Below, in pieces: positions 1 through 44,072 of a stretch of DNA of 44,072 nt. The first letter of the stretch is position 1; each line of letters opens with the position of its first letter. Made by a program: the position numbers and the translations under genes. The notes beneath the pieces are model-generated. The model had not been told where the DNA came from and searched no databases. It was given only the letters and a program-made list of their open reading frames with translations. The stretch is from a virus (taxonomy: Duplodnaviria; Heunggongvirae; Uroviricota; Caudoviricetes): IMG/VR virus record IMGVR_UViG_3300045988_043987. The stretch is one strand, 5' to 3'.

Positions 1-119
1 ATTTTTTTTATCTATTTTCTATAATGACTAGTTGACTATTATCTACGACCCTACTATATTTACTCCATCGACAACGAGAACGGAGTAGAGAGAAATGATG
101 ACTAAGATTAAGCATACCG
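1..119. repeat. terminal direct repeat, left copy (identical to 43954-44072)
   Basis: bases 1-119 recur exactly at the window end; true terminal repeat or circular-assembly overlap. Confidence 0.9.
32..60 (+). promoter_or_regulatory. sigma70-like promoter (TTGACT - 17 bp - TATATT) for the rightward small-gene cluster
   Basis: -35 TTGACT at 32-37, 17-bp spacer, -10 TATATT at 55-60; lies downstream of the 43934-43962 terminator in circular order. Confidence 0.6.
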
Positions 120-283
120 ATAACTGGGGCGATTTCATGGAGATAGAGAAGTGCCGGGACGGGACATTACTTATAACTTGTACAGACGGAGATAGCGACG
201 AATCGGTTAGTGTTAACGTGAGTATGGGTGATTTTATGATTATTGTTGAGCAAGTGGCGTCTTTTTACGGAGATGATAAATGA
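95..283 (+). CDS. hypothetical protein (62 aa)
   Basis: ORF with GGAG ribosome-binding site 9-12 nt upstream; first gene after promoter. Confidence 0.6.
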   Translation: MMTKIKHTDNWGDFMEIEKCRDGTLLITCTDGDSDESVSVNVSMGDFMIIVEQVASFYGDDK

Positions 284-429
284 AAATCACAGATACCGAA
301 GCATTTGAAGACGCACAACTGATGGCACGTATTGCCGTTAGCAACCTGGGCAGCAATATCCCGTCGGACGCGTTCTGGTCCGCGGCGATGCAGGCACTTA
401 AAGCAGCTTATGCAGGAGAGAAGAAATGA
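280..429 (+). CDS. hypothetical small protein (49 aa)
   Basis: ATGA start/stop overlap with upstream ORF; below ORF-track size cutoff. Confidence 0.35.
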   Translation: MKITDTEAFEDAQLMARIAVSNLGSNIPSDAFWSAAMQALKAAYAGEKK

Positions 430-580
430 GCTAACAAAGTCCAGCAAGCCGGCCATTACGAGTAGGCCGTAAAGTTAGTCACACCCCGTTCCCGACACGC
501 GAGGAACTGATGAAACGTAACAGTTTCCCTGGGCCGGACAAGAACAAGTATCTCAATCGCATGTGGGGAGAGCGTAAAGA

Positions 581-751
581 ATGAAAAAGTTAATTGCAGA
601 CGTTGAGCTTGGCGATGTTATCCGTATTGATGATGACTACGGCGGCTACGACGTAGTGGCGAAGCGCATCGAGTGGGATTTTATGTTGCCGTTTGTCACG
701 ATTAACCGTGAAATCATGTTCGCTAAAACTGATTGGGTAGAGGTTCGATAA
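581..751 (+). CDS. hypothetical small protein (56 aa)
   Basis: ATG ORF whose stop overlaps the next start (TAATG). Confidence 0.35.
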   Translation: MKKLIADVELGDVIRIDDDYGGYDVVAKRIEWDFMLPFVTINREIMFAKTDWVEVR

Positions 752-948
752 TGACTGACCGTGAATACGAAAAGATGATGGTAGAGGCTGTTAACGGCGG
801 TGTAGACATCGGTCACGTGATGCACGTCCTGAATACTAAAATTTCGGTAGCGGAGCAAATGGTTGAGTCGCTTTACGAGACACGCCGCGAACTGATTAAC
901 CGCTTCAACCTGAACAAAGTCTTGGGTGACGGGCATGAAAGCGCCTGA
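751..948 (+). CDS. hypothetical protein (65 aa)
   Basis: ATG at 751 in frame with track ORF 733-948; GGTAGAGG upstream. Confidence 0.55.
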   Translation: MTDREYEKMMVEAVNGGVDIGHVMHVLNTKISVAEQMVESLYETRRELINRFNLNKVLGDGHESA

Positions 949-1117
949 ACCAGTAGTTATCGATGGCGTCCTGTGGAAACCCTACTCTGTTAACCACATA
1001 GACGCTGACGGGAAGAAGTTCAGCTTCTACATTTTTGCAATTAGCCGGGAGCATGCCGCTTGTGTGGTCGACGATATCAGAGAAACGGCGTGGCTCGGTG
1101 ATGAGATAGTGGGGTAG
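935..1117 (+). CDS. hypothetical protein (60 aa)
   Basis: ATG at 935 in frame with track ORF 926-1117. Confidence 0.5.
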   Translation: MKAPEPVVIDGVLWKPYSVNHIDADGKKFSFYIFAISREHAACVVDDIRETAWLGDEIVG

Positions 1118-1119
1118 TT

Positions 1120-1290
1120 ATGTTCAGTGACATCAACGCTGCAATCGAAGAGGCGATATGGCGCCGCTACAACGGTGGGCAACAGCGGCACTTCTGCCTG
1201 GTGCAGCGCGGTAACGTGATTGCCGTGGTACAGGACCGCGATAACAAATATCCGAATGCGATGTGGACAACGAGGAATTTCTTAGGATGA
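1120..1290 (+). CDS. hypothetical small protein (56 aa)
   Basis: ATG ORF filling gap; stop overlaps next start (ATGA). Confidence 0.35.
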   Translation: MFSDINAAIEEAIWRRYNGGQQRHFCLVQRGNVIAVVQDRDNKYPNAMWTTRNFLG

Positions 1291-1523
1291 TTACCAGCAT
1301 TCCGAACCTGATTAAAGAATTTGGCACGATGGCCGAGACATGCCGACAAACCGGCATCAACGAGATGACGATTGCCAAGTACAGCAAAGACGTGGACTGT
1401 GAGCGCCACGTAATTTATAACAACCGTCTGATGACGCATGTTAAGACAAGCCCGGTGTTATTCACGCGCCGGGGCATCACTAAAACTGAGCAACGCATTG
1501 CTAAAGGGGAGAGTGGAGAATGA
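1287..1523 (+). CDS. hypothetical protein (78 aa)
   Basis: ATG at 1287 in frame with track ORF 1263-1523. Confidence 0.55.
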   Translation: MITSIPNLIKEFGTMAETCRQTGINEMTIAKYSKDVDCERHVIYNNRLMTHVKTSPVLFTRRGITKTEQRIAKGESGE

Positions 1524-1702
1524 TTGCGTTTTTGAAGGCACTTGATGCCGCAGGCAACCTGGTGTTTTGGCTGGCCTTTTTAGTTGTGCTGATAAAACAA
1601 CCGACTTTGTTTAACAGTCTTCCTAGCCATCTGTGGTGGCCTATGTTTTTAGGCATGATTGTGTCAGGAGTGGCTGGTATCCTTTTGTGGTTTTTCAAAT
1701 GA
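1520..1702 (+). CDS. small membrane protein (60 aa, 2 predicted TM helices)
   Basis: hydrophobic segments LVFWLAFLVVL and MFLGMIVSGVAGILLWFF; ATGA overlap with upstream gene. Confidence 0.6.
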   Translation: MIAFLKALDAAGNLVFWLAFLVVLIKQPTLFNSLPSHLWWPMFLGMIVSGVAGILLWFFK

Positions 1703-1804
1703 GACTACTAATCATCCCGAACGCCTGGGCTATCGCTGTAGCTAACGACCATTACGGCGGTGATGGTAAAAGAGCACCACGACACGGCCTATATAACTGA
1801 TACA

Positions 1805-1827
1805 AGCCCTCTACGGAGGGCTTTTCT
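1805..1827 (+). terminator. intrinsic terminator
   Basis: hairpin AGCCCTC-TACG-GAGGGCT followed by TTTT. Confidence 0.6.
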
Positions 1828-1921
1828 GTACATCCAGCCCAATCCCCTTATATAATCCCTTTAGACGCGTAGGGCGCGTCTGGTGCGCTCTGATGGTCAG
1901 ACGCATATGCAAGGGGATTCT

Positions 1922-2431
1922 ATGAAGCTGAAACTTAAGCAGCCATCGCCTGAGGTGGTGCAAGCTGCACATGAAGAAGCTGTTAGCGCAAACCGTCGCC
2001 GTAAACGCCCGCGCGGTAAACAGAGCCTTTATCAATCATCCCGTAATTCCGCCGCGTTGTGGGACCCGGACTATTGCGACGAACTGATTCGTTTCTTCGA
2101 CCGCACGTCGTGGGAGCTTGTGCCTACGTCTAAGGGTGGCGAACGCCCCCTTATTCAGGATAAACCGCCATCACTGGCCCGCTTCGCCTTGCACATCGGC
2201 GTCACTATTCCGATTATTAAACTATGGCTGCGCGAGATTCCCGCATTTGCAGAAGCCTATGAAACGGCGCAGGCACTGGAAGAGGCGTACTTCACTGAGA
2301 CAGGGGCCGCGGGCATCTCCGCTACGTTCGCTGCCGCTAAGTTGGGCCTGAATAAAACAGTTGTTGCTGAAGAAGTACGCGACGAGCCAATCAGCGAAGT
2401 AACAATTAAGGTGGTGTCCGGTGAACGTTAA
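1922..2431 (+). CDS. terminase small subunit (putative)
   Basis: position immediately upstream of TerL; basic N-terminus; AAGGGG ribosome-binding site before ATG at 1922. Confidence 0.55.
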   Translation: MKLKLKQPSPEVVQAAHEEAVSANRRRKRPRGKQSLYQSSRNSAALWDPDYCDELIRFFDRTSWELVPTSKGGERPLIQDKPPSLARFALHIGVTIPIIKLWLREIPAFAEAYETAQALEEAYFTETGAAGISATFAAAKLGLNKTVVAEEVRDEPISEVTIKVVSGER

Positions 2432-3692
2432 TATCACGGCGACGGAGCCACAAGGCGCATTTCTAGGTATGCATTGCAAGTTCCCGGCATTCGTGGCAGG
2501 CTTCGGCACCGGGAAGTCAGAGGTTATGTGCAACTCTGCACTACTCGACAGCATGGAAGGTGGTAGCGATTCTATCATCGCCATGTACGAGCCTACCTAT
2601 GACCTGGTGCGCCTCATCCTTGCACCGCGTATGGAAGAAAAGCTGACGGACTGGGGTATCCGATACAAATACAACAAGTCTGACAACATAATCTATACGT
2701 CATCCAGTCAATTTGGGGATTTTGTTCTGCGTACATTGGATAATCCAGCACGAATCGTAGGTTACGAGTCCTTTCGCGCAAAAATCGACGAGTTGGACAC
2801 CCTTAACATGGAACATGCTGAGCACGCGTGGAACAAAGTCATCGCCCGTAACCGCCAGTTGCCGCGGACATATAAACCTATTACGCCCAAACCGGCTAAT
2901 ACCGTTTCCGTGTTCACCACGCCGGAAGGATTCCGTTTCGTACATGACCGCTGGGTTGTTAAAAAGAATCCTGGCTACGAGATGATTCAGGCATCCACCC
3001 TGTCGAACCCGTTCCTGCCGGAAGATTATGTTCAGTCATTGCGCGATACCTACCCGGGTCAGTTGATTGACGCCTACATTAACGGCGAGTTTGTAAACCT
3101 CACGGCTGGGACGGTCTACTACGCTTACGACCGCAGGAAAAATAGTAGTCGTGAAACAATCAAGCCTGGCGAGACTCTGTATATTGGGCAGGACTTTAAC
3201 GTAGGCCACATGGCGAGCACAGTTTACGTGCAACGCGGGAAGGTGTGGCACGCTGTCGCCGAGTTGGTTGATATGTTCGATACCCCCGATGTAGTGCGGG
3301 CTATAACCGAGCGATGGAAAAGTAAGGGTCACTATATCGTTATGTACCCGGACGCCAGCGGCAAAAACCGTAAAAGCAACAACGCCAGTACCTCAGACAT
3401 CGCCCAGCTACAGCAGGCCGGTTTCGAAGTACGCGCTAAATCGACAAACCCACCGGTTAAAGACCGCGTATCTGCGATGAATAAGGCGCTTGAATCTGGT
3501 ATGGTCATGATTAACGAACAGGCTTGCCCAGTTACGGCGCGATGCCTGGAGCAGCAAGCCTACGACAAGAACGGCGAACCGGATAAATCCGGGGGCGTGG
3601 ACCACCAGAATGATGGAACCACATACCCTATCGCGTACGAAATGCCGATTCGCAAACCAGTTATTAACGTCCCGGTGACTTTCGCACTTTAA
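2421..3692 (+). CDS. terminase large subunit
   Basis: N-terminal Walker A-like GFGTGKS, C-terminal nuclease-like region; GTG start with AAGGTGG ribosome-binding site (start uncertain; first ATG at 2469). Confidence 0.8.
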   Translation: MNVNITATEPQGAFLGMHCKFPAFVAGFGTGKSEVMCNSALLDSMEGGSDSIIAMYEPTYDLVRLILAPRMEEKLTDWGIRYKYNKSDNIIYTSSSQFGDFVLRTLDNPARIVGYESFRAKIDELDTLNMEHAEHAWNKVIARNRQLPRTYKPITPKPANTVSVFTTPEGFRFVHDRWVVKKNPGYEMIQASTLSNPFLPEDYVQSLRDTYPGQLIDAYINGEFVNLTAGTVYYAYDRRKNSSRETIKPGETLYIGQDFNVGHMASTVYVQRGKVWHAVAELVDMFDTPDVVRAITERWKSKGHYIVMYPDASGKNRKSNNASTSDIAQLQQAGFEVRAKSTNPPVKDRVSAMNKALESGMVMINEQACPVTARCLEQQAYDKNGEPDKSGGVDHQNDGTTYPIAYEMPIRKPVINVPVTFAL

Positions 3693-3704
3693 GAGGATTA
3701 TTCA

Positions 3705-5186
3705 ATGTTAACTATGAACGGTCAGAATCAGGGTGTTAAGACAAAACACCTGGAATGGCTACATCACTTCGATAAATGGCAGAAGGTACGCCACGCTCTG
3801 GAAGGCGACCTCATCCGTTATCTTCGCAACGTCGGGAAGAACGAGCCGGACCCTAAATATGCAGCACAGCGCCAGGAAGAATACGAGAATGGCGCTATCT
3901 GCTACAACTTCACAAAACGTACCCTGGCGGGGATGGTCGGCAGCGTTATGCGTAAAGACCCTGAGCAAATTATCCCACCTGAAATGGAGTACCTGCTACG
4001 CAACGCGGATGGCTCAGGTGTCGGCTTGTGGCAGCACGCGCAGGACACGCTGATGGAGATTGACTCGGTGGGCCGTGGCGGTTTGCTGGTGGACGCCCCT
4101 GAGACTGCTGCTGCAACGGCGGCAGAACAGAACGCGGGGCTATTAAACCCGGTCATCGCGTTCTACACCGCGGAGAACATCATCAACTGGCGACTTACTC
4201 GCATCGGCTCAGTGAACCGCGTGACGATGGTTGTATTGCGTGAGGTATGGGAATACTCAGAACCTGGTGCAGAGTTCGAAACCAAGTTCGGTGAGCAATA
4301 CCGCGTCCTTGACCTTATTGAAGGCCGTTACCGTCAGCGCATTTACCGCTTCGATGCCGAAGGTGGTGCTCAGGATGAGGTAATCGAAATATTCCCGGAA
4401 CTCGGCGAACAGTTACGCGGCAAAATCCCCTTCACATTCATCGGGGCAAGCAACAACGATGCAACCATCGACGACGCACCTTTGCTGCCGTTGGCTGAAC
4501 TTAATATCGGACATTTCCGCAACAGCGCGGACAATGAGGAGTCCAGCTTCGTTGTAGGCCAACCTACTCTGTTCATCGCCCCGGGAGAGAACATGAGCAT
4601 GGAACAGTGGGCGGAAGCTAACCCGCACGGCGTGCGCATGGGGTCGCGTTCAGGCCATAACATCGGCTACGGCGGCAATGCGTTTCTGGTCCAGGCGGGA
4701 GAGAACAACCTTGCCAAGCAGAACATGCTGGATAAAGAGAATCAGGCAATCCAGATTGGGGCGCAGCTTATCACCCCTACGCAGCAAATCACCGCGGAAT
4801 CGGCCCGCCTGCAACGCGGCGCTGACACCTCAGTTATGGCAACAATCGCACGTAACGTAAGCATGGCGTATACCGATGCGTTGCGCTGGGTAGCGGCGAT
4901 GCTAGGGTTGCGTGAAGGCACAGAGATTGAGTTCAAACTGAACATGGAATTCTTCCTGCAACCGATGACCGCTCAGGACCGTGCACAGTGGATGGCGGAT
5001 ATTAACGCCGGTTTGCTGCCAGCTACTGCTTACTACGCGGCGTTGCGTAAGGCCGGTGTAACCGACTGGACTGACGAGGACATTCAGAACGCTATTGAGG
5101 ATGCACCTCTGCCGAATGCTACGATGGTGCAAGGAGATATTCCGGCATCGGCTAACCCGCAAGACCAACAGAACCCGCCGCAATGA
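3705..5186 (+). CDS. portal protein
   Basis: 493-aa ORF directly after TerL; size and position typical. Confidence 0.75.
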   Translation: MLTMNGQNQGVKTKHLEWLHHFDKWQKVRHALEGDLIRYLRNVGKNEPDPKYAAQRQEEYENGAICYNFTKRTLAGMVGSVMRKDPEQIIPPEMEYLLRNADGSGVGLWQHAQDTLMEIDSVGRGGLLVDAPETAAATAAEQNAGLLNPVIAFYTAENIINWRLTRIGSVNRVTMVVLREVWEYSEPGAEFETKFGEQYRVLDLIEGRYRQRIYRFDAEGGAQDEVIEIFPELGEQLRGKIPFTFIGASNNDATIDDAPLLPLAELNIGHFRNSADNEESSFVVGQPTLFIAPGENMSMEQWAEANPHGVRMGSRSGHNIGYGGNAFLVQAGENNLAKQNMLDKENQAIQIGAQLITPTQQITAESARLQRGADTSVMATIARNVSMAYTDALRWVAAMLGLREGTEIEFKLNMEFFLQPMTAQDRAQWMADINAGLLPATAYYAALRKAGVTDWTDEDIQNAIEDAPLPNATMVQGDIPASANPQDQQNPPQ

Positions 5187-5212: not shown

Positions 5213-5398
5213 TTAACAAGCTGATGTTGTCCAGTAATCACCATAATCATTTACGTAAAATTTCTTCATACCAGACCACCCGAAGTTCTTACATGTCTTT
5301 TTGAATCGCTTCATTACCTGTGTTCTTGTCAGCATCAAAACACTACCGTTTCCATCTCTTGCGAAATCTCCGCCGGACTTATATGGTTTCTTTTCCAC
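5213..5398 (-). CDS. hypothetical lysine-rich small protein (61 aa), antisense to late genes
   Basis: GTG start preceded by GGGGG; conserved operator/promoter motif directly upstream at 5424-5456. Confidence 0.4.
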   Translation of the reverse strand: MEKKPYKSGGDFARDGNGSVLMLTRTQVMKRFKKTCKNFGWSGMKKFYVNDYGDYWTTSAC

Positions 5399-5423: not shown

Positions 5424-5456
5424 CGAATAGTACCCTATTATATTGGTGTCTGCAAA
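5424..5456. promoter_or_regulatory. conserved dyad operator/promoter motif, copy 1
   Basis: CGAATAGTACCCTATTATATTGGTGTCTGCAAA; core AATAG-N4-CTATT with TATAAT on the minus strand. Confidence 0.6.
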
Positions 5457-5499
5457 TATTATTTTTATGCGTTACACTGGCGATACTACAGGAGGGCTT

Positions 5500-6543
5500 A
5501 TGAGCTTACTTACATCGCTAATCAGCCACCAGATATGGCTGCAACGCACCGCATCCGGCGAAGTGAAAGACCTTGCACCGTTTATTCAGGAGATGCGGGA
5601 TGAAATCAAACGGCAGGTGCTGTTATTCGGTGACGACGGGCGAAGCACAGCGCGCCTGAATAAACTGTTACGCGACCTCGAAGAAGCATTGACCGGACTT
5701 ACGGGTGACTGGCAGACAAAGCTGACAGAAGACCTTAAGGAACTGGCAGCGTATGAGGCTGAGTGGAACGTAAAGACACTTACCGCCAACGTAAATGCGG
5801 AATTTGTTACACCTACCGCCGAACAGGTGTGGGCCGCCGCCGAGTTTCAACCGCTCTCATTAAGCGACAAACCAGTTGATTTCACCAAGCTGATGTCGGG
5901 CTGGGGTGAAACAGAAGTCGCGCGCCTTGTAACCGGCGTTAAAATGGGTTTCGTACAAGGCCAAACCACACGGCAGATTGTTAAAAGCGTAGTCGGCGCT
6001 GGCGGACTGGCAGACATCTCGGAACGAAACGCAGCTACAGTAATACGTACTGCGCTGTCTCATGTGTCCAACGAAGCCCGTAACGAGACGTACCGCCAGA
6101 ACGACGACATCATTGAGAAATACGAAATAGTCGCCACACTCGACAGCCGTACATCAACAATATGCCGTAGCCTGGACAGGCAGGAATACGAAATCAGCAA
6201 AGGTCCGAGACCCCCTTTCCATCCTAACTGCAGAACGACCACTGCGCCCGTAATCAGTTCCGAGTTCGATTTCCTGGATAAAGGTGCAAAACGCGCGGCT
6301 AAGGGTGCGAACGGCGGTACTCAGGTAAGTGCGGACACCACTTACTACGAGTTCCTCAAACAACAACCGGCGTGGTTTCAGGACCAGGCCCTCGGCCCTG
6401 TTCGCGGTAAGATTTTCCGTAACAGCGGTATATCGCCGGAAGAGTTTCGCGTAATATCTGTAGATGGTTTTGGGAATCCGCTCACGCTTAAGCAGATGGC
6501 GGAACTCGATAAACGTGTCGCTGATTATCTGAAAGGGGAATAA
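5500..6543 (+). CDS. head morphogenesis protein (Mu F / SPP1 gp7-like minor head protein)
   Basis: characteristic C-terminal motif ...STICRSLD...PPFHPNCRTT; ATG at 5500 with AGGAGG. Confidence 0.85.
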   Translation: MSLLTSLISHQIWLQRTASGEVKDLAPFIQEMRDEIKRQVLLFGDDGRSTARLNKLLRDLEEALTGLTGDWQTKLTEDLKELAAYEAEWNVKTLTANVNAEFVTPTAEQVWAAAEFQPLSLSDKPVDFTKLMSGWGETEVARLVTGVKMGFVQGQTTRQIVKSVVGAGGLADISERNAATVIRTALSHVSNEARNETYRQNDDIIEKYEIVATLDSRTSTICRSLDRQEYEISKGPRPPFHPNCRTTTAPVISSEFDFLDKGAKRAAKGANGGTQVSADTTYYEFLKQQPAWFQDQALGPVRGKIFRNSGISPEEFRVISVDGFGNPLTLKQMAELDKRVADYLKGE

Positions 6544-7004
6544 TGATGGGCTTTTTCAAAGTAACTGATGTACCGTCGCGTCGCGTAGTCCAGTACGCCC
6601 GCGTGTCTGGCTCCGGCGAGAACGTAGTATTTATTGAGGATGAAAGTGTACTAGGTACACCAGTAGACGATATGCCGTTTGCGGATAAGACAGGCATCGC
6701 ACTTCCTGCGGCAGGTATGCTTTATGAGATTCCGTATCTGGCTGATGCGGGTGATGTGTATTTCTCCGAGCAACCGAAAGATGCGGAACTGGTAGACGGC
6801 AGCGCAACCCTCACTGTCGAAGTTAAAGCAGGTGAAGCGCCGTATACACTGACCTGGTACAAAGACGGTAAGGAAGTGGTAAACGCCCCGGAAGAGGCCT
6901 TGTCTCTGACGGTCAATGCAGTTGGTGAATACTTCGTTAAGGTTACTGATGCCGATGGTGTAGATGCGGTAAGTAAAGCGGCGAAGGTTACTAAGCCAGA
7001 ATGA
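6543..7004 (+). CDS. Ig-like domain protein (putative capsid decoration)
   Basis: Ig-like beta-sandwich signature TLTVEVKAGEAPYTLTWYKDGKEV. Confidence 0.6.
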   Translation: MMGFFKVTDVPSRRVVQYARVSGSGENVVFIEDESVLGTPVDDMPFADKTGIALPAAGMLYEIPYLADAGDVYFSEQPKDAELVDGSATLTVEVKAGEAPYTLTWYKDGKEVVNAPEEALSLTVNAVGEYFVKVTDADGVDAVSKAAKVTKPE

Positions 7005-7006
7005 TA

Positions 7007-7038
7007 AAAGGCCCCTTATGGGGCCTTAATTTTATTTA
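7007..7038. terminator. bidirectional intrinsic terminator
   Basis: AAAAGGCCCC-TTAT-GGGGCCTT followed by AATTTTATTT. Confidence 0.7.
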
Positions 7039-7553
7039 AATCGCGCTGGCATTAGCACCATAAATGCAGTGTTTGAAAATGATATTTTGCATCCTCTGAT
7101 TTGGTCCTGGAAATCGAAACGAGCGATTTCATTTTTGTATGCCTTAGAAATCTTGTGCGCGTCCGCCAAGTAGCGCAGGGTGAACCCTATGCTGTCAACC
7201 GCCCCCGGCGTGATGTGCGCCACACGTCTCCAGTCAGGAAACCTTCCGTCTACAACATCTACCGGAAGTGTACATATAAGCGCACGACTATCGTCATAGA
7301 AAGAAACGCTGCTGTTGTCGTGGTCTACTTCCGCGTAGTTAAATTTAGAAGGCTCTCTCCCTTTGATGTCTATGAGAACCGCATTCTCAACGTTTGTCTT
7401 AACGTTGTCGCAGAACAATCTATGACCGTCCGTAGACACTATCAATCCCTCCGGGTCTATGTAAAAAGCATTCAAATAATAGCGCACATCATTTTTAGCT
7501 CTGCATATTTTTGCCCCTACATACGCAGGGAAAGTAATTACTGTAGTAGCCAT
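7032..7553 (-). CDS. truncated beta sliding clamp (DnaN)-like protein
   Basis: segments DVRYYLNA, STDGHRLF, VDGRFPDWRRV, SIGFTLRYLADA and C-terminal MVLMPARFK match recalled enterobacterial DnaN domain II and C-terminus; GAGGAGG ribosome-binding site; own promoter motif. Confidence 0.7.
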   Translation of the reverse strand: MATTVITFPAYVGAKICRAKNDVRYYLNAFYIDPEGLIVSTDGHRLFCDNVKTNVENAVLIDIKGREPSKFNYAEVDHDNSSVSFYDDSRALICTLPVDVVDGRFPDWRRVAHITPGAVDSIGFTLRYLADAHKISKAYKNEIARFDFQDQIRGCKISFSNTAFMVLMPARFK

Positions 7554-7661: not shown

Positions 7662-7704
7662 AAACTATTCGAATAGTTGACTTTTCACTAAAAATATGCT
7701 AAGC
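7662..7704 (+). promoter_or_regulatory. promoter of ncRNA A with upstream perfect palindrome
   Basis: palindrome AACTATTCGAATAGTT (7662-7677) overlapping -35 TTGACT (7676-7681); 17-bp spacer; -10 TAAGCT (7699-7704). Confidence 0.55.
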
Positions 7705-7710
7705 TCCACC

Positions 7711-7910
7711 TGAGCTTGTGAAGTATGAACAAGCGACCGCGGCGCGGGCAGGTAACGGAGCGGGACGTAAGTCCTGAGTGTAGTTACGCTGACGCGTTCG
7801 GAAGGGCCATACTCTATTGCTTGTGTAAAAAGTAACTGGTTTACTGAGATTACGCCGTTTCTATGTTTAAATGATAAGGACTAGCGCCCCGCTTTATGGC
7901 GGGGCTTTAC
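7711..7910 (+). ncRNA. candidate structured small RNA, paralog A
   Basis: own promoter; 5' hairpin GCUUGU-N9-ACAAGC; internal hairpin GGAC-GUAA-GUCC; conserved 3' segment UUCGGAAGGGCCAUA; terminator-like hairpin GCCCCGC-N6-GCGGGGC plus U-rich tail; paralog at 38625. Confidence 0.5.
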
Positions 7911-9211: not shown

Positions 9212-10261
9212 ATGGCAATTACCACTATCGGCGATATCGTAACTAGCAACATCCCGGTCTTGGCGTCTTATATGACCGAGGACCCGGTAGAGAAAACCGC
9301 GTTCTTCCAGTCCGGTATTCTGACCCCGACTCCGTACGCCGCAGAGATTGCTCGTGGCCCTTCCAACGTCGCCAACATTCCTTTCTGGAAAGCGATTGAT
9401 GCCTCTATCGAGCCTAACTATTCGAACGACGTGTATCAGGACATCGCTACCCCGCGTAACGTGCAGACCGGTGAGATGATGGCCCGCGTTGCGTACCTGA
9501 ACGAAGGTTTCGGCCAGGCGGACCTGACTGTCGAACTGACCAGTCAGAATCCGCTGCAATCCGTGGCTTCTCGTCTGGATAACTTCTGGCAGCGCCAGGC
9601 ACAACGCCGTCTGATTGCTACCGCGCTGGGTCTGTACAACGACAACGTAGCCGCTACTGATGCTTACCACGAGAAGGATGACATGGTTATCGACGTGTCC
9701 GCTACTCTGGGCTTCGACGCGGGTGCATTCATCGACGCTACCCAGACTATGGGCGACGCTCTGATGGGCAACGGTGGTGAAGTGCTGGGCGCCATTGCTA
9801 TGCACAGCTTCGTTTATGCGCAGGCGCGTAAGCAGCAGCTTATTGACTTCATCAAAGACGCCGACAACGACACCCTGTTTGCCACCTACCAGGGCTACCG
9901 CGTGATTGTTGACGACAGCATGACCGTGGTCGGCACTGGTCCAAGCCGTAAGTTCATCTCCATCATCTTCGGCAACGGCGCTATCGGTTATGGCGAAGGC
10001 AACCCGTCCAACCCGCTGGAATATGAGCGCGAAGCGTCTCGCGGTAACGGCGGTGGCATTGAAACCCTGTGGACCCGTAAGACCTGGCTGTTGCACCCGC
10101 TGGGTTACAGCTTCACCAGCGCAGTAATCACTGGCAACGGCACCGAGACTACCCCGCGCTCTGCTTCATGGCAGGACCTGGCGAACGCCTCCAACTGGAA
10201 CCGTGTTGTTGACCGTAAGCACGTACCGATTGCCTTCCTGGTAACTGGTGTCGGTGCTTAA
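9212..10261 (+). CDS. major capsid protein
   Basis: 349-aa ORF after scaffold gene, GAGGA ribosome-binding site, followed by attenuating terminator. Confidence 0.7.
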   Translation: MAITTIGDIVTSNIPVLASYMTEDPVEKTAFFQSGILTPTPYAAEIARGPSNVANIPFWKAIDASIEPNYSNDVYQDIATPRNVQTGEMMARVAYLNEGFGQADLTVELTSQNPLQSVASRLDNFWQRQAQRRLIATALGLYNDNVAATDAYHEKDDMVIDVSATLGFDAGAFIDATQTMGDALMGNGGEVLGAIAMHSFVYAQARKQQLIDFIKDADNDTLFATYQGYRVIVDDSMTVVGTGPSRKFISIIFGNGAIGYGEGNPSNPLEYEREASRGNGGGIETLWTRKTWLLHPLGYSFTSAVITGNGTETTPRSASWQDLANASNWNRVVDRKHVPIAFLVTGVGA

Positions 10262-11717: not shown

Positions 11718-12332
11718 ATGGCGAAGACTAAAACAGAGATGTTTACCCTTATCGGTGCAAATCTTCCCGATAACACTACCGGTCTTATCACCCCAGCCGC
11801 ATTGCGCGAGGTAATGACGCAGATGGCCGACTCGCCTATTTACGCCACTCCTGGGGTGAAAGAGGTCGAAGTTCTCCGTGCCGCGTCGACCGTAACACAA
11901 GCGCCTACCGCGGTAGATACGGCGTTGCAGTTAACTTTTGGTTCCGCTCAGGGTAGCGCATCTGACCCGGTAATGATTAATGCCGCCGGGCTGGTTACAT
12001 TCAACACCGCGGGTAACTACGCCGTTCGCATCAAGTTACAAGCTGGGCGCACTGGGGCAAGCGGCACGTCTATCCTGTTATCGCGTATTCTTCTGAACGG
12101 CGCTCAGTACGGCTCGCCAGCAGCTACTAAACTGGTAAACGCTGATATTACAATCCCGATTGAGTCTCGCGTCGTTATTAACCCGACCGCAGGTCAGACG
12201 TTTGCCGTTCAGATTATGCGGGACAGCGCCGGGAGTGACTTCGGCGGAGTATACCCACAAGCAGCTACTGTAACCTCATGGGGTACTGCGCCATCTGCGC
12301 TACTGGTTATTTCGAGACTGGAGGCCGCCTGA
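11718..12332 (+). CDS. hypothetical structural protein (204 aa)
   Basis: ORF in head-tail joining region. Confidence 0.5.
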   Translation: MAKTKTEMFTLIGANLPDNTTGLITPAALREVMTQMADSPIYATPGVKEVEVLRAASTVTQAPTAVDTALQLTFGSAQGSASDPVMINAAGLVTFNTAGNYAVRIKLQAGRTGASGTSILLSRILLNGAQYGSPAATKLVNADITIPIESRVVINPTAGQTFAVQIMRDSAGSDFGGVYPQAATVTSWGTAPSALLVISRLEAA

Positions 12333-12691
12333 TGAGCACCGCTTTCAGTAAACGTATGCAAGGCGTTGGCACGCGCCTGCTAACTAAATTCGGTAGCACG
12401 GTATCTCTGGTTCGTGCTGGCTCGAAAGTGTGGGATGAAGTTCTCGGTGAATACGTCTGGTCCGCGGATGAAGTGCTGCCGTTAAAGGCCGTTCCGGTTC
12501 CTGTTAACGCGGGGCTGGTAAATGGTACGACGATTCAGGCGGGCGACATGATTGTTAAAGCCGATTGCAGTGTCGTTCCTAAGATGGAGGACAAGGTGCA
12601 ATTCGGTGGCGAGCAATGGTCTGTCGTAGCTATTGAGAAGAAGATGGTTAACGATGATGTCGTGGCATATTTTATTCAGGTGAGAAAATGA
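12332..12691 (+). CDS. head-tail adaptor (putative)
   Basis: ATG at 12332 overlapping upstream stop; in frame with track ORF 12278-12691. Confidence 0.5.
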   Translation: MSTAFSKRMQGVGTRLLTKFGSTVSLVRAGSKVWDEVLGEYVWSADEVLPLKAVPVPVNAGLVNGTTIQAGDMIVKADCSVVPKMEDKVQFGGEQWSVVAIEKKMVNDDVVAYFIQVRK

Positions 12692-13086
12692 GTTTCGCGC
12701 TTGATGTCTCTAAGTTCGTGGAAAAGGCGAAGAAGAACCCAGAGAAGGTGATGCGTCAGGTGTCTATCAAGCTGTTTTCCGCTATTATAAAGGCGAGTCC
12801 GGTAGATACGGGTCGCTTTCGTATGAACTGGATGGCGTCTGGCGGCATTCCTGCTTCGGGGATTACAGATGCTACGGATAAATCAGGAAACATAGCAATC
12901 GGAAACGCTACAGGTTTCGTACTGAAAGCCACAGACTGGCACGAGTTCACGCTGACAAATAACCTACCGTATGCCCAACGGCTGGAGTATGGCCATTGGT
13001 CGAAACAGGCCCCACAAGGCATGGTCAGGATAAATGTGTCCCGCTTCCAGCAACTCATTAACGAAGAAGCCAACAAGGTGAAATGA
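12688..13086 (+). CDS. neck/head-closure protein (putative)
   Basis: translationally coupled ORF in neck gene block. Confidence 0.5.
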   Translation: MSFALDVSKFVEKAKKNPEKVMRQVSIKLFSAIIKASPVDTGRFRMNWMASGGIPASGITDATDKSGNIAIGNATGFVLKATDWHEFTLTNNLPYAQRLEYGHWSKQAPQGMVRINVSRFQQLINEEANKVK

Positions 13087-13501: not shown

Positions 13502-14668
13502 ATGGCTACAACTCCTTTTAAGGGCGCGACTACCGCGCAATTCTATGTGGCAGAAGTCACCCCGGGCGTAACACCGACTAACCCGGTATGGTCGCCGTTG
13601 CGTAACACAGGTGGCGTCCCCGCTATTACCCGCGACACGCTGACCTCCAACGAGCTGGACGGCAGCCGTGAAACTACGTCCATCCGCACCGGTAACAAGC
13701 AGATTAGCGGGGAATACGCTATTGAGCTTAGCTCGAAAAGCCAGGACGACTGGCTGGCGGGGGCTTTAGGCTCTACGTGGCAATCCGGTAGATCTCTGAC
13801 AGGGCTATCAATTACCGTCGCACCGGCGGGCAAGACGTTCACACGCGCCACTGGCAGCTTCATCACTGACGGCGTTGAAGTTGGCGACCTGATCGCGTTT
13901 ACCGACTTAACAGGCGATAACGCAAAACCATTTATTGTTACTGCAGTAACGGCTACGGTTGTTACTGGTGCAGGTATCCAACACACCCTGACCACCGAGA
14001 CAAAAACCAGTAAGGCTAAAACTGGCGACACGCTGGAAACCGGCAACACGTGTAAGACGTTCTCTATCCTCACCTGGTACAAAGGCCAGTGCGGCGGTAC
14101 TGACGCGTACACGTTAACCAAAGGCGTGGAAGTTTCTGGTTTTACCATCGAACAGGCTGTTAACGCAATGGTAACGGGCAGCTTCCCGTTCATCGGGCGC
14201 AGCCAGGAGATTCTCGCGACGCCGCCGTCTGGTTCCGACTTCTCTTCCGTTACGTTTGGTGACGAGCCGTTCTCTTCGGTTGACGTTTCTGTGTTCGATG
14301 GGTCTACGCCGTTGCGTTGCGACAGCCTGACCATCACCAACGATAACAGCGCGTCTGCGCAGTTCGAACTCGGCAACACTAACGTAGCGTTTGTGGAACG
14401 TAGCCGCGCGGCTAACACCTTCTCCATCTCCGGTAAGCTGTACGACATGGCGATGATTCAGAAGTTTATCAACGAACAGCAGGTAGAGATTAACTCTATT
14501 CTGGCTGGGGTAAACGGGGCTATGTCCTTTAGTCTGAAACGTGCAGAACTTACAGCGGTTACACCAGAGATTGGCGGGCCTGAGTCAATCACTCAGTCTA
14601 TTGAAGGCCAGGCTACGGGCAACCAGTACCAGTCGTCTATTGTTATCCAGCGTATCACCTACGCATAA
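13502..14668 (+). CDS. major tail (tube) protein (putative)
   Basis: large ORF upstream of chaperone/tape-measure genes; AAGAGG ribosome-binding site; followed by strong terminator. Confidence 0.6.
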   Translation: MATTPFKGATTAQFYVAEVTPGVTPTNPVWSPLRNTGGVPAITRDTLTSNELDGSRETTSIRTGNKQISGEYAIELSSKSQDDWLAGALGSTWQSGRSLTGLSITVAPAGKTFTRATGSFITDGVEVGDLIAFTDLTGDNAKPFIVTAVTATVVTGAGIQHTLTTETKTSKAKTGDTLETGNTCKTFSILTWYKGQCGGTDAYTLTKGVEVSGFTIEQAVNAMVTGSFPFIGRSQEILATPPSGSDFSSVTFGDEPFSSVDVSVFDGSTPLRCDSLTITNDNSASAQFELGNTNVAFVERSRAANTFSISGKLYDMAMIQKFINEQQVEINSILAGVNGAMSFSLKRAELTAVTPEIGGPESITQSIEGQATGNQYQSSIVIQRITYA

Positions 14669-35271: not shown

Positions 35272-35487
35272 ATGCAACCATCTGAACTAGGCATCCGTGT
35301 AGAACAACGCCGTAAAGAACTCGGTATCTCCCAGCGCCGTCTGGCGGTCCTGGCCGGTGTTTCCCAGGGCGCGATTAACCAGCTGGCACTTGGAGTAACT
35401 CAGGACGTCCGCCCGGCGACGCTGTTCAAGCTGGCGGAAGTGCTGGAAGTAGACGCCAAGTGGCTGGCGTTCGGTGAAGGGGCTTAA
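35272..35487 (+). CDS. XRE-family (Cro/CI-like) helix-turn-helix transcriptional regulator
   Basis: helix-turn-helix signature ISQRRLAVLAGVSQGAINQL; AAGGAG ribosome-binding site; lone plus-strand gene in minus-strand module. Confidence 0.75.
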   Translation: MQPSELGIRVEQRRKELGISQRRLAVLAGVSQGAINQLALGVTQDVRPATLFKLAEVLEVDAKWLAFGEGA

Positions 35488-38481: not shown

Positions 38482-38589
38482 TTTTATATCTCCTGTTTGT
38501 TTAGTGAAGCCAAGTATAGGATAGCGTGAATGTAAAAGCAACCAAAACACCACACAAAGTTACTAAGATACAAAAGATGCTACTGGTAT

Positions 38590-38618
38590 TGACTTTTACT
38601 AAGAAATATGCTAAGCTC
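38590..38618 (+). promoter_or_regulatory. promoter of ncRNA B (TTGACT - 17 bp - TAAGCT)
   Basis: same hexamers and spacing as ncRNA A promoter. Confidence 0.55.
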
Positions 38619-38624
38619 GTCCTG

Positions 38625-38836
38625 AGCTTGTGAAGTATGAACAAGCGACCGCGGTGCGCGGCAGGCGAAACGAGCACGTCTCGACGTGTGGAGTGAGTCT
38701 CGCTGGCGCATTCGGAAGGGCCATAGTCTATTGTTATTCCCGCCTAAGTATCTAAGTTACTGATTTGACGTAGGTTAGAACCGCAAGCTCACTCACTCAC
38801 TCTTGGTGCCTTCGGCACCCCGTTCGTTTCGTTTCG
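38625..38836 (+). ncRNA. candidate structured small RNA, paralog B
   Basis: shares 5' 37 nt and 3' UUCGGAAGGGCCAUA segment with paralog A; internal hairpin CACGU-CUCG-ACGUG; terminator-like GGUGCC-UUCG-GCACC plus U-rich tail. Confidence 0.5.
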
Positions 38837-39907: not shown

Positions 39908-40111
39908 ATGGGTAAGTGGATTAAGTGTAGTGAGCGGATGCCAGACCATGGCCAGCCAGTTTTGGTTGTCAGTAGTATGGGTGGTGTGGTCCAGAACAAT
40001 GTGTACGAGTGGGATGGGGTAACTTGGTGTGATTTCCGGGCGGACTACGGGGAACACGTGCAGGAAGTGTTTTCTCACTGGATGCCATTACCTGAGCCAC
40101 CAGAAGTGTGA
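39908..40111 (+). CDS. DUF551-like protein
   Basis: W-x-KCSERMP ... HWMPLPEPP pattern typical of DUF551. Confidence 0.55.
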   Translation: MGKWIKCSERMPDHGQPVLVVSSMGGVVQNNVYEWDGVTWCDFRADYGEHVQEVFSHWMPLPEPPEV

Positions 40112-40143
40112 TGTTCAATAGTTTGGGATTTTACTGAGTGACT

Positions 40144-40176
40144 TACGCTGCTACACAGCAGCGTATCATTTTTCTC
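40144..40176 (+). terminator. intrinsic terminator
   Basis: TACGCTGC-N6-GCAGCGTA followed by T-rich tract. Confidence 0.6.
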
Positions 40177-40235
40177 ATTTTTGTTCTATTTCACCAAACG
40201 CAACAATCGAAGCGACTATTGAAGGAGATGCAACA

Positions 40236-40406
40236 ATGAAACTTAATGACATCGTAACCTGGACCGGTAGAAACGGAGAAAAGCGATTCGGGCTTATTGT
40301 TGCATCAAACGGCAACAAGTACCGTGTTATGCGATGGCGTCAGTGGGCGCGACGCCCGAGGCACTACTGGATTAGTAGCGAACGATTATCTTTAAAACAC
40401 CAATAA
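40236..40406 (+). CDS. hypothetical basic small protein (56 aa)
   Basis: strong AAGGAG ribosome-binding site; below track cutoff. Confidence 0.4.
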   Translation: MKLNDIVTWTGRNGEKRFGLIVASNGNKYRVMRWRQWARRPRHYWISSERLSLKHQ

Positions 40407-40412
40407 AATTTA

Positions 40413-40447: not shown

Positions 40448-40473
40448 TACACAAACGAGAGGAGAGACAGAAT

Positions 40474-41684: not shown

Positions 41685-41878
41685 TGGTACAGAGGTACGA
41701 GGCAAACGCGTGGGGTCTGCCGGAGCCTGAGATGGCTGAGTACGCGTACGGCGATTACGTAGAATATGACGCTTATCTGAAACTCGAAGCAAAGTTACGT
41801 GAATTCGCTGAACAGGTAATGTACGCACCTTGTTCGAAAGTTACAGAAGAAATGGCCCGCGAGATTCTCGGAATATGA
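41681..41878 (+). CDS. hypothetical protein (paralog 2 of tandem pair)
   Basis: MMVQRY...YDAYLKLEA. Confidence 0.5.
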   Translation: MMVQRYEANAWGLPEPEMAEYAYGDYVEYDAYLKLEAKLREFAEQVMYAPCSKVTEEMAREILGI

Positions 41879-42015
41879 GCCTCGCAACTGACATCCTGAA
41901 ACGAAGCGGCCTCGCTCCGCTGTCTCCGAGAGCGAAGACCCGGATACACAAGCGCCGCCGTAACGCGCTGTTCCCGGAGATACAAGAACGCCGTAAAGCT
42001 ATCCGCGCCTGTTGA
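41875..42015 (+). CDS. hypothetical arginine-rich small protein (46 aa)
   Basis: ATGA-coupled ATG in frame with track ORF 41830-42015. Confidence 0.4.
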   Translation: MSLATDILKRSGLAPLSPRAKTRIHKRRRNALFPEIQERRKAIRAC

Positions 42016-42033
42016 TTCCAGAACGGGAAGGCC

Positions 42034-42168
42034 GTGAATCTTGGTGAGTTTAAAACACAGGAACGCGCAGCTATCGCTAATCGACTATTTAACTACTGGA
42101 AATCGCTGGGGTACGAGGATATTCCGACGAAACCTCAGAGACGACAATACATCTGGAGACACAAATGA
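42034..42168 (+). CDS. hypothetical small protein (44 aa, GTG start)
   Basis: gap-filling ORF whose stop overlaps next ATG. Confidence 0.25.
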   Translation: MNLGEFKTQERAAIANRLFNYWKSLGYEDIPTKPQRRQYIWRHK

Positions 42169-42605
42169 CGACTATCGCGTTCGACGGAAAGACAATGGCA
42201 TGTGACACGCGTGTTGTGTGCGGGAGTAACTGTTACAACACAGACACAAAGATATACGAGAATGATTTTGCTGTTATCGGGGTGGCTGGCGATGCCGGAG
42301 TCGGAACTATGCTTATCGATTGTCCGTATATCCTCCAGGCCAGACACTATGACTTCGATTTCGAAGCCCTGGTGTTCGTGAAAGATACAGAAAAAGTGTA
42401 TAAAGTCGCGTTTTATAAATCGTGGGATTGTGCACTAAGTTCGGTTATCCCTGTTGCCGATAGCTTTGCCGCCGTTGGTTCCGGTTCTCCTTATGCACTG
42501 GCGGCCATGGAATGTGGATATTCAGCACATGGAGGTGTGGCCGTTGCCTCGAAGTTCGACACTAACACGGGCGGCAAGATTATTACCAAACAACTATTAG
42601 GATAA
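42165..42605 (+). CDS. HslV/proteasome-beta-like Ntn-hydrolase peptidase (putative)
   Basis: N-terminal MTTIAF (Thr after Met) and GSGSPYALAA motif, as in HslV TTIV... and GSGGPYAQAA. Confidence 0.55.
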   Translation: MTTIAFDGKTMACDTRVVCGSNCYNTDTKIYENDFAVIGVAGDAGVGTMLIDCPYILQARHYDFDFEALVFVKDTEKVYKVAFYKSWDCALSSVIPVADSFAAVGSGSPYALAAMECGYSAHGGVAVASKFDTNTGGKIITKQLLG

Positions 42606-42664
42606 ATCCTACCCGTGGTATCCTCCAGTTACTGCATACTTAATACGCACCTGGAGGATTCATC

Positions 42665-42973
42665 TTGGATAAATTTACCGAAACAGTGACAGGCTGGCTT
42701 CTCGCTGCCGCACTCGCCGGAGGGGTCATCGGACTACGACAACATAAGTCCGTTATTTCTGGCCCTATCGACGGCTTCTGCTTTATCGCAACCGGCTTCA
42801 CTTGCGCCGTATTTGGTGCGCCTCTTGCCGCCCAATGGTTTGGCATTACCGGGGAGCGTGAAATCGCTGGCCTCGGATTTATCATCGCTGTCCTCTGGAT
42901 GCCCATCTATTCCCGCCTTTCTGGCATCGTCGCCGGAGAATACATCGCACGTCGAGGAGGCTCGGATGAATGA
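42665..42973 (+). CDS. holin (putative, 3 TM helices)
   Basis: three hydrophobic helices, charged C-terminus; TTG start with GGAGGA; upstream of endolysin. Confidence 0.55.
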   Translation: MDKFTETVTGWLLAAALAGGVIGLRQHKSVISGPIDGFCFIATGFTCAVFGAPLAAQWFGITGEREIAGLGFIIAVLWMPIYSRLSGIVAGEYIARRGGSDE

Positions 42974-43238
42974 GCTATTCTGGTTCGGCGGTATGCTGGC
43001 AATCGGTGGCGCATCGCTGTTTAATGTGTATCATCCCAGCGTTGACGACGGGTTATTTGGTCGGGTGCTCTATATCCTGACCGCTATTGTCTGCGCCGCC
43101 GGGTGTATCCACCTGTTACAGGGCAGCATGTCACCTACGTTGCCCGAGACGTTAATCACATTAGTCGCGCTGCGTCAGATTCGTCAGGCGTGGCTGTCGT
43201 ACGGAGGACATAAGCGTGTCTCGAAATATTTCAGATAA
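42966..43238 (+). CDS. second lysis-cassette membrane protein (2 TM helices; holin/antiholin-like)
   Basis: ATG at 42966 with GAGGAGG; overlaps holin stop and endolysin start. Confidence 0.45.
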   Translation: MNELFWFGGMLAIGGASLFNVYHPSVDDGLFGRVLYILTAIVCAAGCIHLLQGSMSPTLPETLITLVALRQIRQAWLSYGGHKRVSKYFR

Positions 43239-43719
43239 TGGATTGCAGTTCAAAAAAGCGTGGGAAAAGTTTCGCGGAACTGCGTACAAAGCAACAAAGA
43301 ACGAAAAATACTGGACTATAGGCTGGGGCCATACCGGGCCTGATGTGTACGAAGGGCAGAAGATTACCGAAGGCCAGGGACTTCTGTTACTGAACCGTGA
43401 TATGCAGTGGGCGGTGAAAGCAGTCGATGACGTCGCACATCCCTCCCTGACCCAAGCCCAGTTTGATGCCGTCGTTGACCTGGTGTTCAACGCAGGGACT
43501 GGCGTGATTGCGGCTACGACAGGGACGGGTAAGGCACTACAGCGGGGAGACATCCCTACCCTACGGCACAAGATGAGTCAGTTCATTAACCAGCGCAACC
43601 CTAAGACCGGTAAACTTGAACCTGTTCTGGGCCTGCGCCGTCGCGTAGCGGGTCGTCTGGCGCTGTTCGACGGTAAACCGTGGCGGGAGGCAGAGGCTAT
43701 CGGGAGGGCTGTTAAATGA
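43216..43719 (+). CDS. endolysin, T4-lysozyme-like (GH24)
   Basis: AYKATKNEKYWTIGWGH lysozyme signature with upstream catalytic Glu; GTG start with GGAGGA. Confidence 0.8.
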   Translation: MSRNISDNGLQFKKAWEKFRGTAYKATKNEKYWTIGWGHTGPDVYEGQKITEGQGLLLLNRDMQWAVKAVDDVAHPSLTQAQFDAVVDLVFNAGTGVIAATTGTGKALQRGDIPTLRHKMSQFINQRNPKTGKLEPVLGLRRRVAGRLALFDGKPWREAEAIGRAVK

Positions 43720-43933
43720 TGGACGAATACGAAGGTGTTTAGTATTCTGGTTAGGCCAAGTTTTTCGTATTTGCTAATGGAGGCCGATATGGCACTGCAA
43801 GAGTTCACCAACCCTGTTAAATCGCGCGACGATATTGACGAGTCTGTCGGTTACGGCGAAGGTTGACACCTAAGACTAATCCGACGATACTTAAATCACC
43901 TCCTGTTCCATCCCTCTACTCTCCAGTTTTATC

Positions 43934-43962
43934 CCGGCCCTGACCTAGCCGGGATTTTTTTT
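43934..43962 (+). terminator. intrinsic terminator
   Basis: CCCGGC-N9-GCCGGG followed by T8. Confidence 0.7.
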
Positions 43963-44072
43963 ATCTATTTTCTATAATGACTAGTTGACTATTATCTACG
44001 ACCCTACTATATTTACTCCATCGACAACGAGAACGGAGTAGAGAGAAATGATGACTAAGATTAAGCATACCG
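43954..44072. repeat. terminal direct repeat, right copy (identical to 1-119)
   Basis: exact 119-bp repetition of the window start. Confidence 0.9.

Follow-up and report, generated by a model that had tools for sequence, protein, structure and literature searches.

The closest described systems are the pac-type packagers of the Guernseyvirinae. PhageTerm assigned headful packaging to the Kagunavirus relatives Shashou, Sciku, Schulenberg, and Snoke as well as to Jerseyvirus SeF1, and it returned no call for two relatives. For Jerseyvirus K47, which belongs to the MT1 group, as does Kenya-K48, PhageTerm indicates P1-like headful packaging, the EcoRV pattern corresponds to a circular map, and the PFGE band is broad. 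Phage fEg-Eco19 was assigned to headful packaging of the P1 type, starting at a pac site, with its end mapped by PhageTerm and restriction analysis; its digests agree with a linear map, and both left-end and right-end restriction fragments were reported (PMC9038960). Headful packaging with circular permutation, the state that the original prediction had set against its own reading, is the literature's account of close relatives.

Identical ends are also left by assemblers, which produce an end overlap of maxK (metaSPAdes and MEGAHIT) or maxK − 1 (IDBA_UD); the k-list of MEGAHIT (21, 29, 39, 59, 79, 99, 119, and 141) includes 119 (PMC10914622). For phage genomes that are circularly permuted, the identical ends left by SPAdes measured 77 bp (PMC9409062).

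The window analyzed here, a stretch of 44,072 nucleotides, contains an ordinary new member of the Kagunavirus-like siphoviruses (Guernseyvirinae) from human gut metagenomes. Related isolates are Escherichia coli phages of the genus Kagunavirus with ∼90% nucleotide identity and a similar genome size and synteny, and its tailspike protein is identical to NCBI DAJ10483.1, a “MAG TPA” entry that may derive from the CHVD catalogue, which was assembled with MEGAHIT. A T7-like identity, suggested by size and repeat, was discarded at the first similarity search. The window contains no tRNAs. The genes relevant to packaging and to the ends of the record are as follows.

1883-2431, + strand: small terminase subunit, TerS (phrog_3064 terminase, E 2e-75)
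2421-3692, + strand: large terminase subunit, TerL, of the Jerseyvirus/RP180 type (Pfam Terminase_6N and 6C)
3705-5186, + strand: portal protein, DUF4055 (Pfam; annotated as portal in relatives)
5443-6543, + strand: head morphogenesis protein, Mu F/SPP1 gp7-like (Pfam Phage_Mu_F)
43216-43719, + strand: endolysin, last gene ahead of the junction (Pfam Phage_lysozyme, E 2e-24; synteny with Shashou and Ivi)
95-283, + strand: 62-amino acid ORF, first gene past the junction (called in independent contigs too)

The two ends of the window carry the same sequence, as the original prediction had stated. Bases 1-119 equal bases 43954-44072 at all 119 positions, which is the longest exact prefix that is also a suffix of the window, and the 119-mer is found at both ends only, with no third copy. 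Chance cannot account for an exact match of this length in a 44-kb sequence. Subtracting one copy leaves a genome unit of 43,953 bp, in which the full set of expected phage modules is present. The same unit length was obtained in two independent assemblies, in support of the claim that the window represents one complete genome plus an overlap. The positions at which the assemblies of this phage close or open are as follows.

1-119, no strand: assembly overlap, copy 1 (exact identity to 43954-44072; single copy in independent junction-crossing contigs)
43954-44072, no strand: assembly overlap, copy 2 (exact identity to 1-119)
12906-12960, no strand: 55-bp end overlap of ENA ERZ28646732 scaffold_130, inside the ORF 12688-13086, a structural gene
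9369, no strand: break point of ENA ERZ28649176 scaffold_105, inside the 349-amino acid ORF 9212-10261, by its position the putative major capsid gene

Scaffold_130 is 44,008 bp long and differs from the window by one mismatch in 21,995 bp, with 100% identity over a further 9 kb. Its own ends overlap by exactly 55 bp, a stretch that we located in the window through the ORFs 13502-14668 and 11718-12332. Because 44,008 − 55 and 44,072 − 119 both give 43,953, the unit is constant between assemblies, and the repeat changes from 119 to 55 bp. Scaffold_105 represents the same phage, with 100% identity in the parts compared, has the same length of 44,008 bp (43,953 + 55), and is opened at window position 9369; the 55-bp overlap was demonstrated directly in scaffold_130, one of these two scaffolds. 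Independent assemblies of one phage thus place the break at the junction of the window, at 12906-12960, or at 9369.

Two further contigs, Logan SRR8090798_2805 and ENA ERZ28648226 scaffold_424, span the junction with 100% identity and contain the 119-mer once. Exact 40-mers of the window had no match among IMG/VR viral contigs and JGI metagenome contigs. A 116-nucleotide query spanning the junction matched 121 phage records, in 120 of which it lies uninterrupted and within the record, none of these 120 being opened there; five aligned relatives are likewise continuous here. Because the repeat varies in length and position from one assembly to another and the unit stays constant, the 119-bp repeat is an assembly artefact rather than a physical terminal repeat. 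The original prediction had left an assembler overlap and a physical repeat side by side as not decidable from sequence; independent assemblies and relatives do decide the matter, and the assembler overlap is the only one of the two to survive.

The repeat resembles the circular-path overlap of de Bruijn graphs that Cenote-Taker 2, CheckV, and similar tools flag as “DTR” when calling viral genomes complete. The prefix is an exact copy of the suffix, the lengths of 119 bp here and 55 bp in the ENA scaffolds are commonly used k values, and the arbitrary, assembly-specific position and the constant unit are found here as well, with nothing different in kind. Besides occurring in the MEGAHIT list, 119 also equals the IDBA_UD maxk of 120 minus 1. 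The assembler is inferred from the number 119, and equating 119 with k is a fit rather than a demonstration.

We consider it highly probable that the record is such an overlap on a 43,953-bp unit that exists as permuted headful virion DNA and/or replicating forms, with a pac site near window position 40,190. A de Bruijn-graph assembler would circle the closed cycle and rewrite the first k-mer at its end, leaving the 119-bp overlap. Reads would cover every position including the junction, originating from permuted virion DNA, from replicating forms in the metagenomic DNA, or from both. The virion DNA would be circularly permuted and terminally redundant, a population of molecules produced from concatemers by headful cutting, with packaging starting at the pac site and then proceeding by headfuls in a P1-like manner. 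Given such a start and successive headfuls, the molecules would lack unique ends, at position 1 as elsewhere. The artefact by itself is no proof of headful packaging, because circular assemblies are also obtained for phages that have genuine short terminal repeats.

The packaging part of this explanation draws on the terminases. TerL gave no meaningful match to PDB sequences in a phmmer search, and in Pfam it falls into the broad Terminase_6 family alone, membership of which does not reveal the packaging type; we therefore judged the packaging type by orthology to characterized phages and not by a reference TerL tree. TerL shares 99.5% identity with RP180, 88.7% with SeF1, Kenya-K48, and Ent1, and 54.5% with K1ind2, and its identity to the fEg-Eco19/K1G type is 54%. 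It is thus orthologous to the TerL of headful-packaging phages, at 88.7% identity to Kenya-K48 and SeF1. TerS is 87% identical to fEg-Eco19 TerS overall and nearly identical in residues 14-150, and the conservation with fEg-Eco19 extends from this recognition part to the region of the pac end. The end of the fEg-Eco19 record aligns to 40076-40190 of the window and its start to 40191-40237; the two alignments are contiguous, with flanks of 90-94% identity, and define the following site.

40190-40191, + strand: site homologous to the fEg-Eco19 pac end, predicted start of the packaging series (record-end alignment; PMC9038960)

Similar to the pac-type packagers of the Guernseyvirinae in size, synteny, the N-terminal part of TerS, and the pac-end region, the phage differs from them in carrying a TerL of the Jerseyvirus/RP180 type on a Kagunavirus backbone, and it is known from sequence alone. 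Judged by these relatives, headful packaging from a pac site at this position is most likely.

An artefactual overlap could also come from a phage with essentially fixed ends, either cos or a terminal repeat, near 40,190. Such ends would accommodate the fEg-Eco19 digests, which fit a linear map with left-end and right-end fragments, and genomes with collapsed terminal repeats likewise assemble as circles. Against this reading, the gene set comprises TerS, a Terminase_6 TerL, a portal protein, and a Mu F-like protein, a combination associated with pac phages. The restriction pattern of K47 corresponds to a circular map and its PFGE band is broad, five further relatives are called headful, and the very paper that reports the fEg-Eco19 digests, together with PhageTerm, calls headful packaging of the P1 type with a pac site as its start (PMC9038960). 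We regard essentially fixed ends as improbable.

Were the window the virion chromosome, with a short direct terminal repeat at its physical ends, this would explain the exact identity of prefix and suffix and the location of the repeat in regulatory, non-coding DNA that includes a promoter, and 119 bp falls within the length range of known short terminal repeats. The likeness to T7/SP6-type repeats is one of looks only, namely an exact repeat of ∼100-250 bp at the ends of a ∼40-kb record with promoters nearby. In contrast to that type, the repeat is fixed neither in position nor in length, and it belongs to a siphovirus with a terminase of another clade, for which there is experimental evidence of headful packaging in relatives. 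The same phage elsewhere shows the 55-bp repeat or the break at 9369 on an equal unit, the 120 deposited relatives run through the junction unopened, and the mapped end of fEg-Eco19 is not homologous to the junction but lies ∼3.8 kb away. In addition, the boundary of the repeat splits a terminator hairpin and a codon. A physical repeat at these coordinates is contradicted by the independent assemblies and has hardly any probability left.

A physically circular replicon, plasmid-like or a replicative form, in the sampled cells would fit the closing of the circle in three data sets and the origin of the related assemblies from bulk metagenomes, which sample intracellular replicating DNA, yet integrase, partition, and plasmid replication genes were not seen among the called genes, the relatives are described as strictly lytic, and such a circle is compatible with permuted headful DNA anyway because that DNA circularizes upon injection, so that we give this reading next to no weight.

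For curation, one 119-bp copy should be trimmed and the record treated as a circular map of the complete 43,953-bp genome, and the “DTR” label is not to be taken as a packaging mechanism. More generally, no reads are needed to distinguish an assembler overlap from a physical terminal repeat if independent assemblies of the same virus are compared and relatives with mapped ends are used.

The junction itself, between a holin-holin-endolysin cassette closed by the endolysin and the terminase genes, contains the following elements.

43863-43891, + strand: promoter-like site TTGACA-17-GATACT (hexamers invariant in relatives)
43931-43962, + strand: intrinsic terminator, hairpin plus U8, 3′ of the lysis cassette (fold; stem invariant in five relatives)
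32-60, again at 43985-44013, + strand: promoter-like site TTGACT-17-TATATT (10 of 12 consensus positions)

The terminator hairpin (43931-43955) has an 8-bp GC-rich stem with a dG of −13.8 kcal/mol and a z of −2.9, is followed by a U-run at 43955-43962, and carries a terminator annotation in Shashou and Snoke. The original prediction had rightly recognized a terminator, placed at 43934-43962, but had put the repeat just downstream of it. In fact, window position 1 corresponds to base 7 of the 3′ stem arm, so that the boundary of the repeat cuts the hairpin. At its other end, the repeat stops in mid-codon, eight codons and one base into the ORF 95-283.

The TTGACT-17-TATATT promoter claimed for the repeat is present as a promoter-like site, of which the hexamers are invariant and the spacer is variable in five relatives; it may serve the gene block of the small ORF and the terminases. 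The ORF 95-283 does start inside the repeat. Its designation as the first early gene is unsupported, because the start point of the record is arbitrary, the ORF matches no Pfam or PHROG family, and it is flanked by the lysis cassette on one side and by the terminase genes on the other.

The upstream promoter-like site (43863-43891) is followed by a C/U-rich stretch of ∼65 nucleotides that runs up to the terminator, and this block of promoter, C/U-rich stretch, and terminator is 94-98% identical across 120 records. The window gave no Rfam match at gathering thresholds. A conserved sRNA-like unit can be discerned at the junction. It is conceivable, although on balance unlikely, that the junction block is a real regulatory device, either a small phage RNA gene or a read-through switch, perhaps working with a leader RNA encoded elsewhere in the genome. 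Such a device may be ordered as promoter (43863-43891), anti-Shine-Dalgarno-like RNA of ∼65 nucleotides, terminator (43931-43962), and second promoter (32-60), and a switch of this kind may operate where the lysis cassette gives way to the packaging genes.

The structured leader RNA is duplicated in the window, at 7706-7815 and 38618-38730, and might render RNA polymerase resistant to termination.

The first 119 nt of the window recur at its end (1–119 = 43954–44072). This is the longest exact prefix of the 44,072-bp sequence that is also a suffix, so that the exact terminal repetition of the original prediction was confirmed by prefix/suffix comparison. Because the 119-mer is present as these two end copies and absent elsewhere in the window, the unit is 43,953 bp long, and we refer to the point at which this circular unit was opened (window 43953|1) as the junction. 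The following features lie at the junction.

32–60 and again 43985–44013, plus strand: promoter-like TTGACT-17-TATATT within the 119-bp repeat
95–283, plus strand: 62-codon ORF, its first 25 bases within the repeat
43931–43955, plus strand: terminator hairpin, from folding
43955–43962, plus strand: U-run of the terminator, from folding

Given the extents of hairpin and U-run, window position 1 falls within the 3′ arm of the stem. The terminator, taken before to lie just upstream of the repeat, is thus cut by the repeat boundary. The designation of ORF 95–283 as the first early gene is not supported, as the ORF had no family match in family searches and the start point of the record is arbitrary.

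Other assemblies of the same phage were located via the tailspike protein. ENA assembly ERZ28646732 scaffold_130 is 44,008 bp long and differs from the window at one base in 21,995 and at none in a further 9 kb. Its ends, both of which were retrieved, share an overlap of exactly 55 bp that corresponds to window 12906–12960, inside ORF 12688–13086, and the unit lengths agree (44,008 − 55 = 44,072 − 119 = 43,953). ERZ28649176 scaffold_105, also 44,008 bp long and 100% identical to the window over 13.7 kb, ends at window 9369, inside ORF 9212–10261 at the major-capsid position. Two shorter contigs, Logan SRR8090798_2805 and ENA ERZ28648226 scaffold_424, cross the junction at 100% identity and contain the 119-mer once. 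What varies by assembly is thus how long the "terminal repeat" is and where it lies, while the unit is constant. This pattern is characteristic of a circular path whose first k-mer has been written out a second time. Physical repeat and assembler overlap, held by the original prediction to be indistinguishable from sequence, can thus be told apart from it: the complete genome unit stands, the physical terminal repeat falls with the differing repeats of the other assemblies, and the 119-bp repeat is not a real biological feature.

Runs or assemblies containing the same strain (99.98–100% identity) number at least seven (loci L006–L016), namely ENA ERZ28646732, ERZ28649176, ERZ28649923, and ERZ28648226 and Logan SRR4305298, SRR4305073, and SRR8090798. 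Run and assembly names bear the codes VATT16 and VATA19, possibly denoting infant-gut cohorts; the recurring strain may be persistent or shared, or the same subjects may have been sampled repeatedly.

With short reads, SPAdes by default goes up to a k of 55. The end overlap left on circular contigs equals maxK for metaSPAdes and MEGAHIT and maxK−1 for IDBA_UD, and the MEGAHIT k-list runs 21, 29, 39, 59, 79, 99, 119, 141 (COBRA paper, PMC10914622). SPAdes contigs of circularly permuted phage genomes have been described with identical 77-bp ends (PMC9409062), and in the CHVD catalogue contigs bearing repeats were "arbitrarily assumed" to be circular (PMC8201803). NCBI entry DAJ10483.1 ("MAG TPA") is identical to the tailspike protein of the window, and our guess is that it stems from the MEGAHIT-assembled CHVD catalogue.

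In megablast against deposited phage genomes, both halves of the window matched at ∼90% identity over 70–86% of the query. The best matches were Escherichia coli siphoviruses of the genus Kagunavirus (Guernseyvirinae), namely BUCT825, ST20, JSSK01, phiWAO78-1, fEg-Eco19, Golestan, and K1G/K1ind, followed by several hundred weaker matches to Salmonella Jerseyviruses. A T7-like identity was rejected on these matches to Kagunavirus siphoviruses. The gene set is complete for a phage of the Guernseyvirinae type.

1883–2431, plus strand: small terminase subunit (TerS)
2421–3692, plus strand: large terminase subunit (TerL)
structural block: portal, Mu F-like head protein, scaffold, ORF at the major-capsid position, tail tube, tape measure
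24244–26238, plus strand: tailspike
minus strand: replication block with, among others, SNF2 helicase, methylase, family A DNA polymerase, and an AAA_25 protein (helicase-primase in relatives)
ending at 43719: holin-holin-endolysin cassette

With the lysis cassette ending at 43719 and the terminase genes starting at 1883, the junction lies between the lysis cassette and the run of small ORFs leading to the terminase genes. Shashou and Ivi have the same order of lysis cassette, small ORFs, and terminase.

Among the deposited genomes listed, a junction query matches one site in the interior of the record, and those records were opened at many different positions. Of 121 records matching the 116-nt junction-spanning query, 120 match it without interruption (94–98% identity), and the match is always internal among those listed. 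An alignment of five relatives shows the terminator stem, the U-run, and both pairs of promoter hexamers unbroken and without variation. Nine metagenomic contigs of related phages, all close to full length (42.6–44.9 kb), have the start of the scaffold gene at record positions between 4.5 and 37.3 kb, on one strand or the other, indicating that break points in related phages are arbitrary.

The break cuts a conserved plus-strand unit (43863–43962 and 1–60) comprising a promoter-like TTGACA-17-GATACT, a C/U-rich stretch of ∼65 nt with the anti-Shine-Dalgarno-like motifs CACCUCCUG and CCCUCU, the terminator, and the second promoter. The unit is more conserved than its diverging flanks (94–98% identity in 120 phage records). 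Rfam matches to RF02278 (25.3 bits, cut-off 50) and RF02837, both of which we take to be families of C/U-rich sRNAs, were sub-threshold. The unit is a candidate for an sRNA gene or, alternatively, for a read-through switch.

Genomes with true terminal repeats also assemble as circles, so the artefact shows only that the 119-bp repeat is not physical, and we infer the packaging mode of the phage from its relatives. PhageTerm assigned headful or pac packaging to the Kagunaviruses Shashou, Sciku, Schulenberg, and Snoke and to Jerseyvirus SeF1 and made no call for two other relatives. Jerseyvirus K47 is P1-like headful by PhageTerm, with an EcoRV pattern that fits a circular map, a broad PFGE band of undigested DNA, and a TerL grouping with that of P1 (PMC10783031). 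K47 and K48 are both members of the MT1 group, in which proteins are >90% identical save three named exceptions. The packaging module of the window (1883–3692, plus strand) is mosaic, its TerL being of the Jerseyvirus/RP180 type (99.5% identical to Raoultella phage RP180, 88.7% to SeF1 and Kenya-K48, ∼89% to Salmonella phages), whereas identity to the K1ind2-type Kagunavirus TerL is only 54.5% and to the K1G/fEg-Eco19 type only 54%.

For fEg-Eco19, the PhageTerm call was headful packaging of the P1 type, starting at a pac site; the record was opened at the pac end, and restriction digests agree (PMC9038960). Aligned with the window, the closing bases of that record fall at 40076–40190 and its opening bases at 40191–40237, which places the mapped pac end at window 40190|40191, ∼3.76 kb upstream of the junction and directly after a terminator-like hairpin (ACGCTGCT-ACAC-AGCAGCGT) with a T-rich run. 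The TerS proteins of the window and of fEg-Eco19 hardly differ in their N-terminal ∼150 residues, and the C-terminal tail diverges in step with the TerL type. Use of the same pac region therefore seems reasonable, and 40190|40191 is the predicted packaging start. Left-end and right-end restriction fragments are both listed for fEg-Eco19 (PMC9038960), a pattern to some extent compatible with rather sharply defined ends near 40.19 kb.

A non-coding element of 174 nt (7677–7850, plus strand) is 95–100% identical in 181 Kagunavirus and Salmonella Jerseyvirus records and has a paralogue at 38589–38733/38766 (plus strand; ∼43 records, 77–98% identity). Both copies begin with TTGACT-17-TAAGCT. The ∼110-nt RNA predicted to follow folds into a hairpin and a long helix with a variable hairpin cap, in three sequence types. 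Alignment cells are 98% paired versus 30–42% with slid partners, and three compensatory pairs are changed on both sides. The element had no Rfam match, and its layout presumably resembles the put RNAs of HK022; the element may act in cis as an antitermination (put-like) RNA.

The GC content is low in the patch that contains the tailspike gene (0.44–0.46). Only the N-terminal ∼160 amino acids of the protein match known tailspikes; for the part of the gene from ∼25001 to its end at 26238, megablast gave no match to isolates. At the position of this gene BUCT825 has an endosialidase. The tailspike looks like a receptor-binding module swap.

The palindrome TATAATAG-N4-CTATTCA occurs in 12 copies in the window at ≤3 mismatches versus 0.79 expected. 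Seven copies are strong (5424, 7579, and 17124, minus strand; 33085, 35180, 38900, and 40427, plus strand), and weak copies include 25–43, 7669, 29478, and 35225. Most strong copies overlap promoter-like sites of the TTGCAC-17-TACTAT type, which on visual inspection face the adjacent gene or block; the weak copy at 25–43 overlaps the −35 of the junction promoter, and two copies lie upstream of an HTH_3 gene (35272–35487). Most probably the motif serves a phage regulator as its operator. Within the plus-strand structural block, two ORFs run on the minus strand (7032–7553 and 5213–5398), and a promoter-like site of the operator type lies just upstream of each. The larger ORF, 7032–7553, ends at a bidirectional terminator (7003–7034), and some relatives carry a Phage_P22_Y8K6 gene in its place, which makes this a moron-like variable slot.
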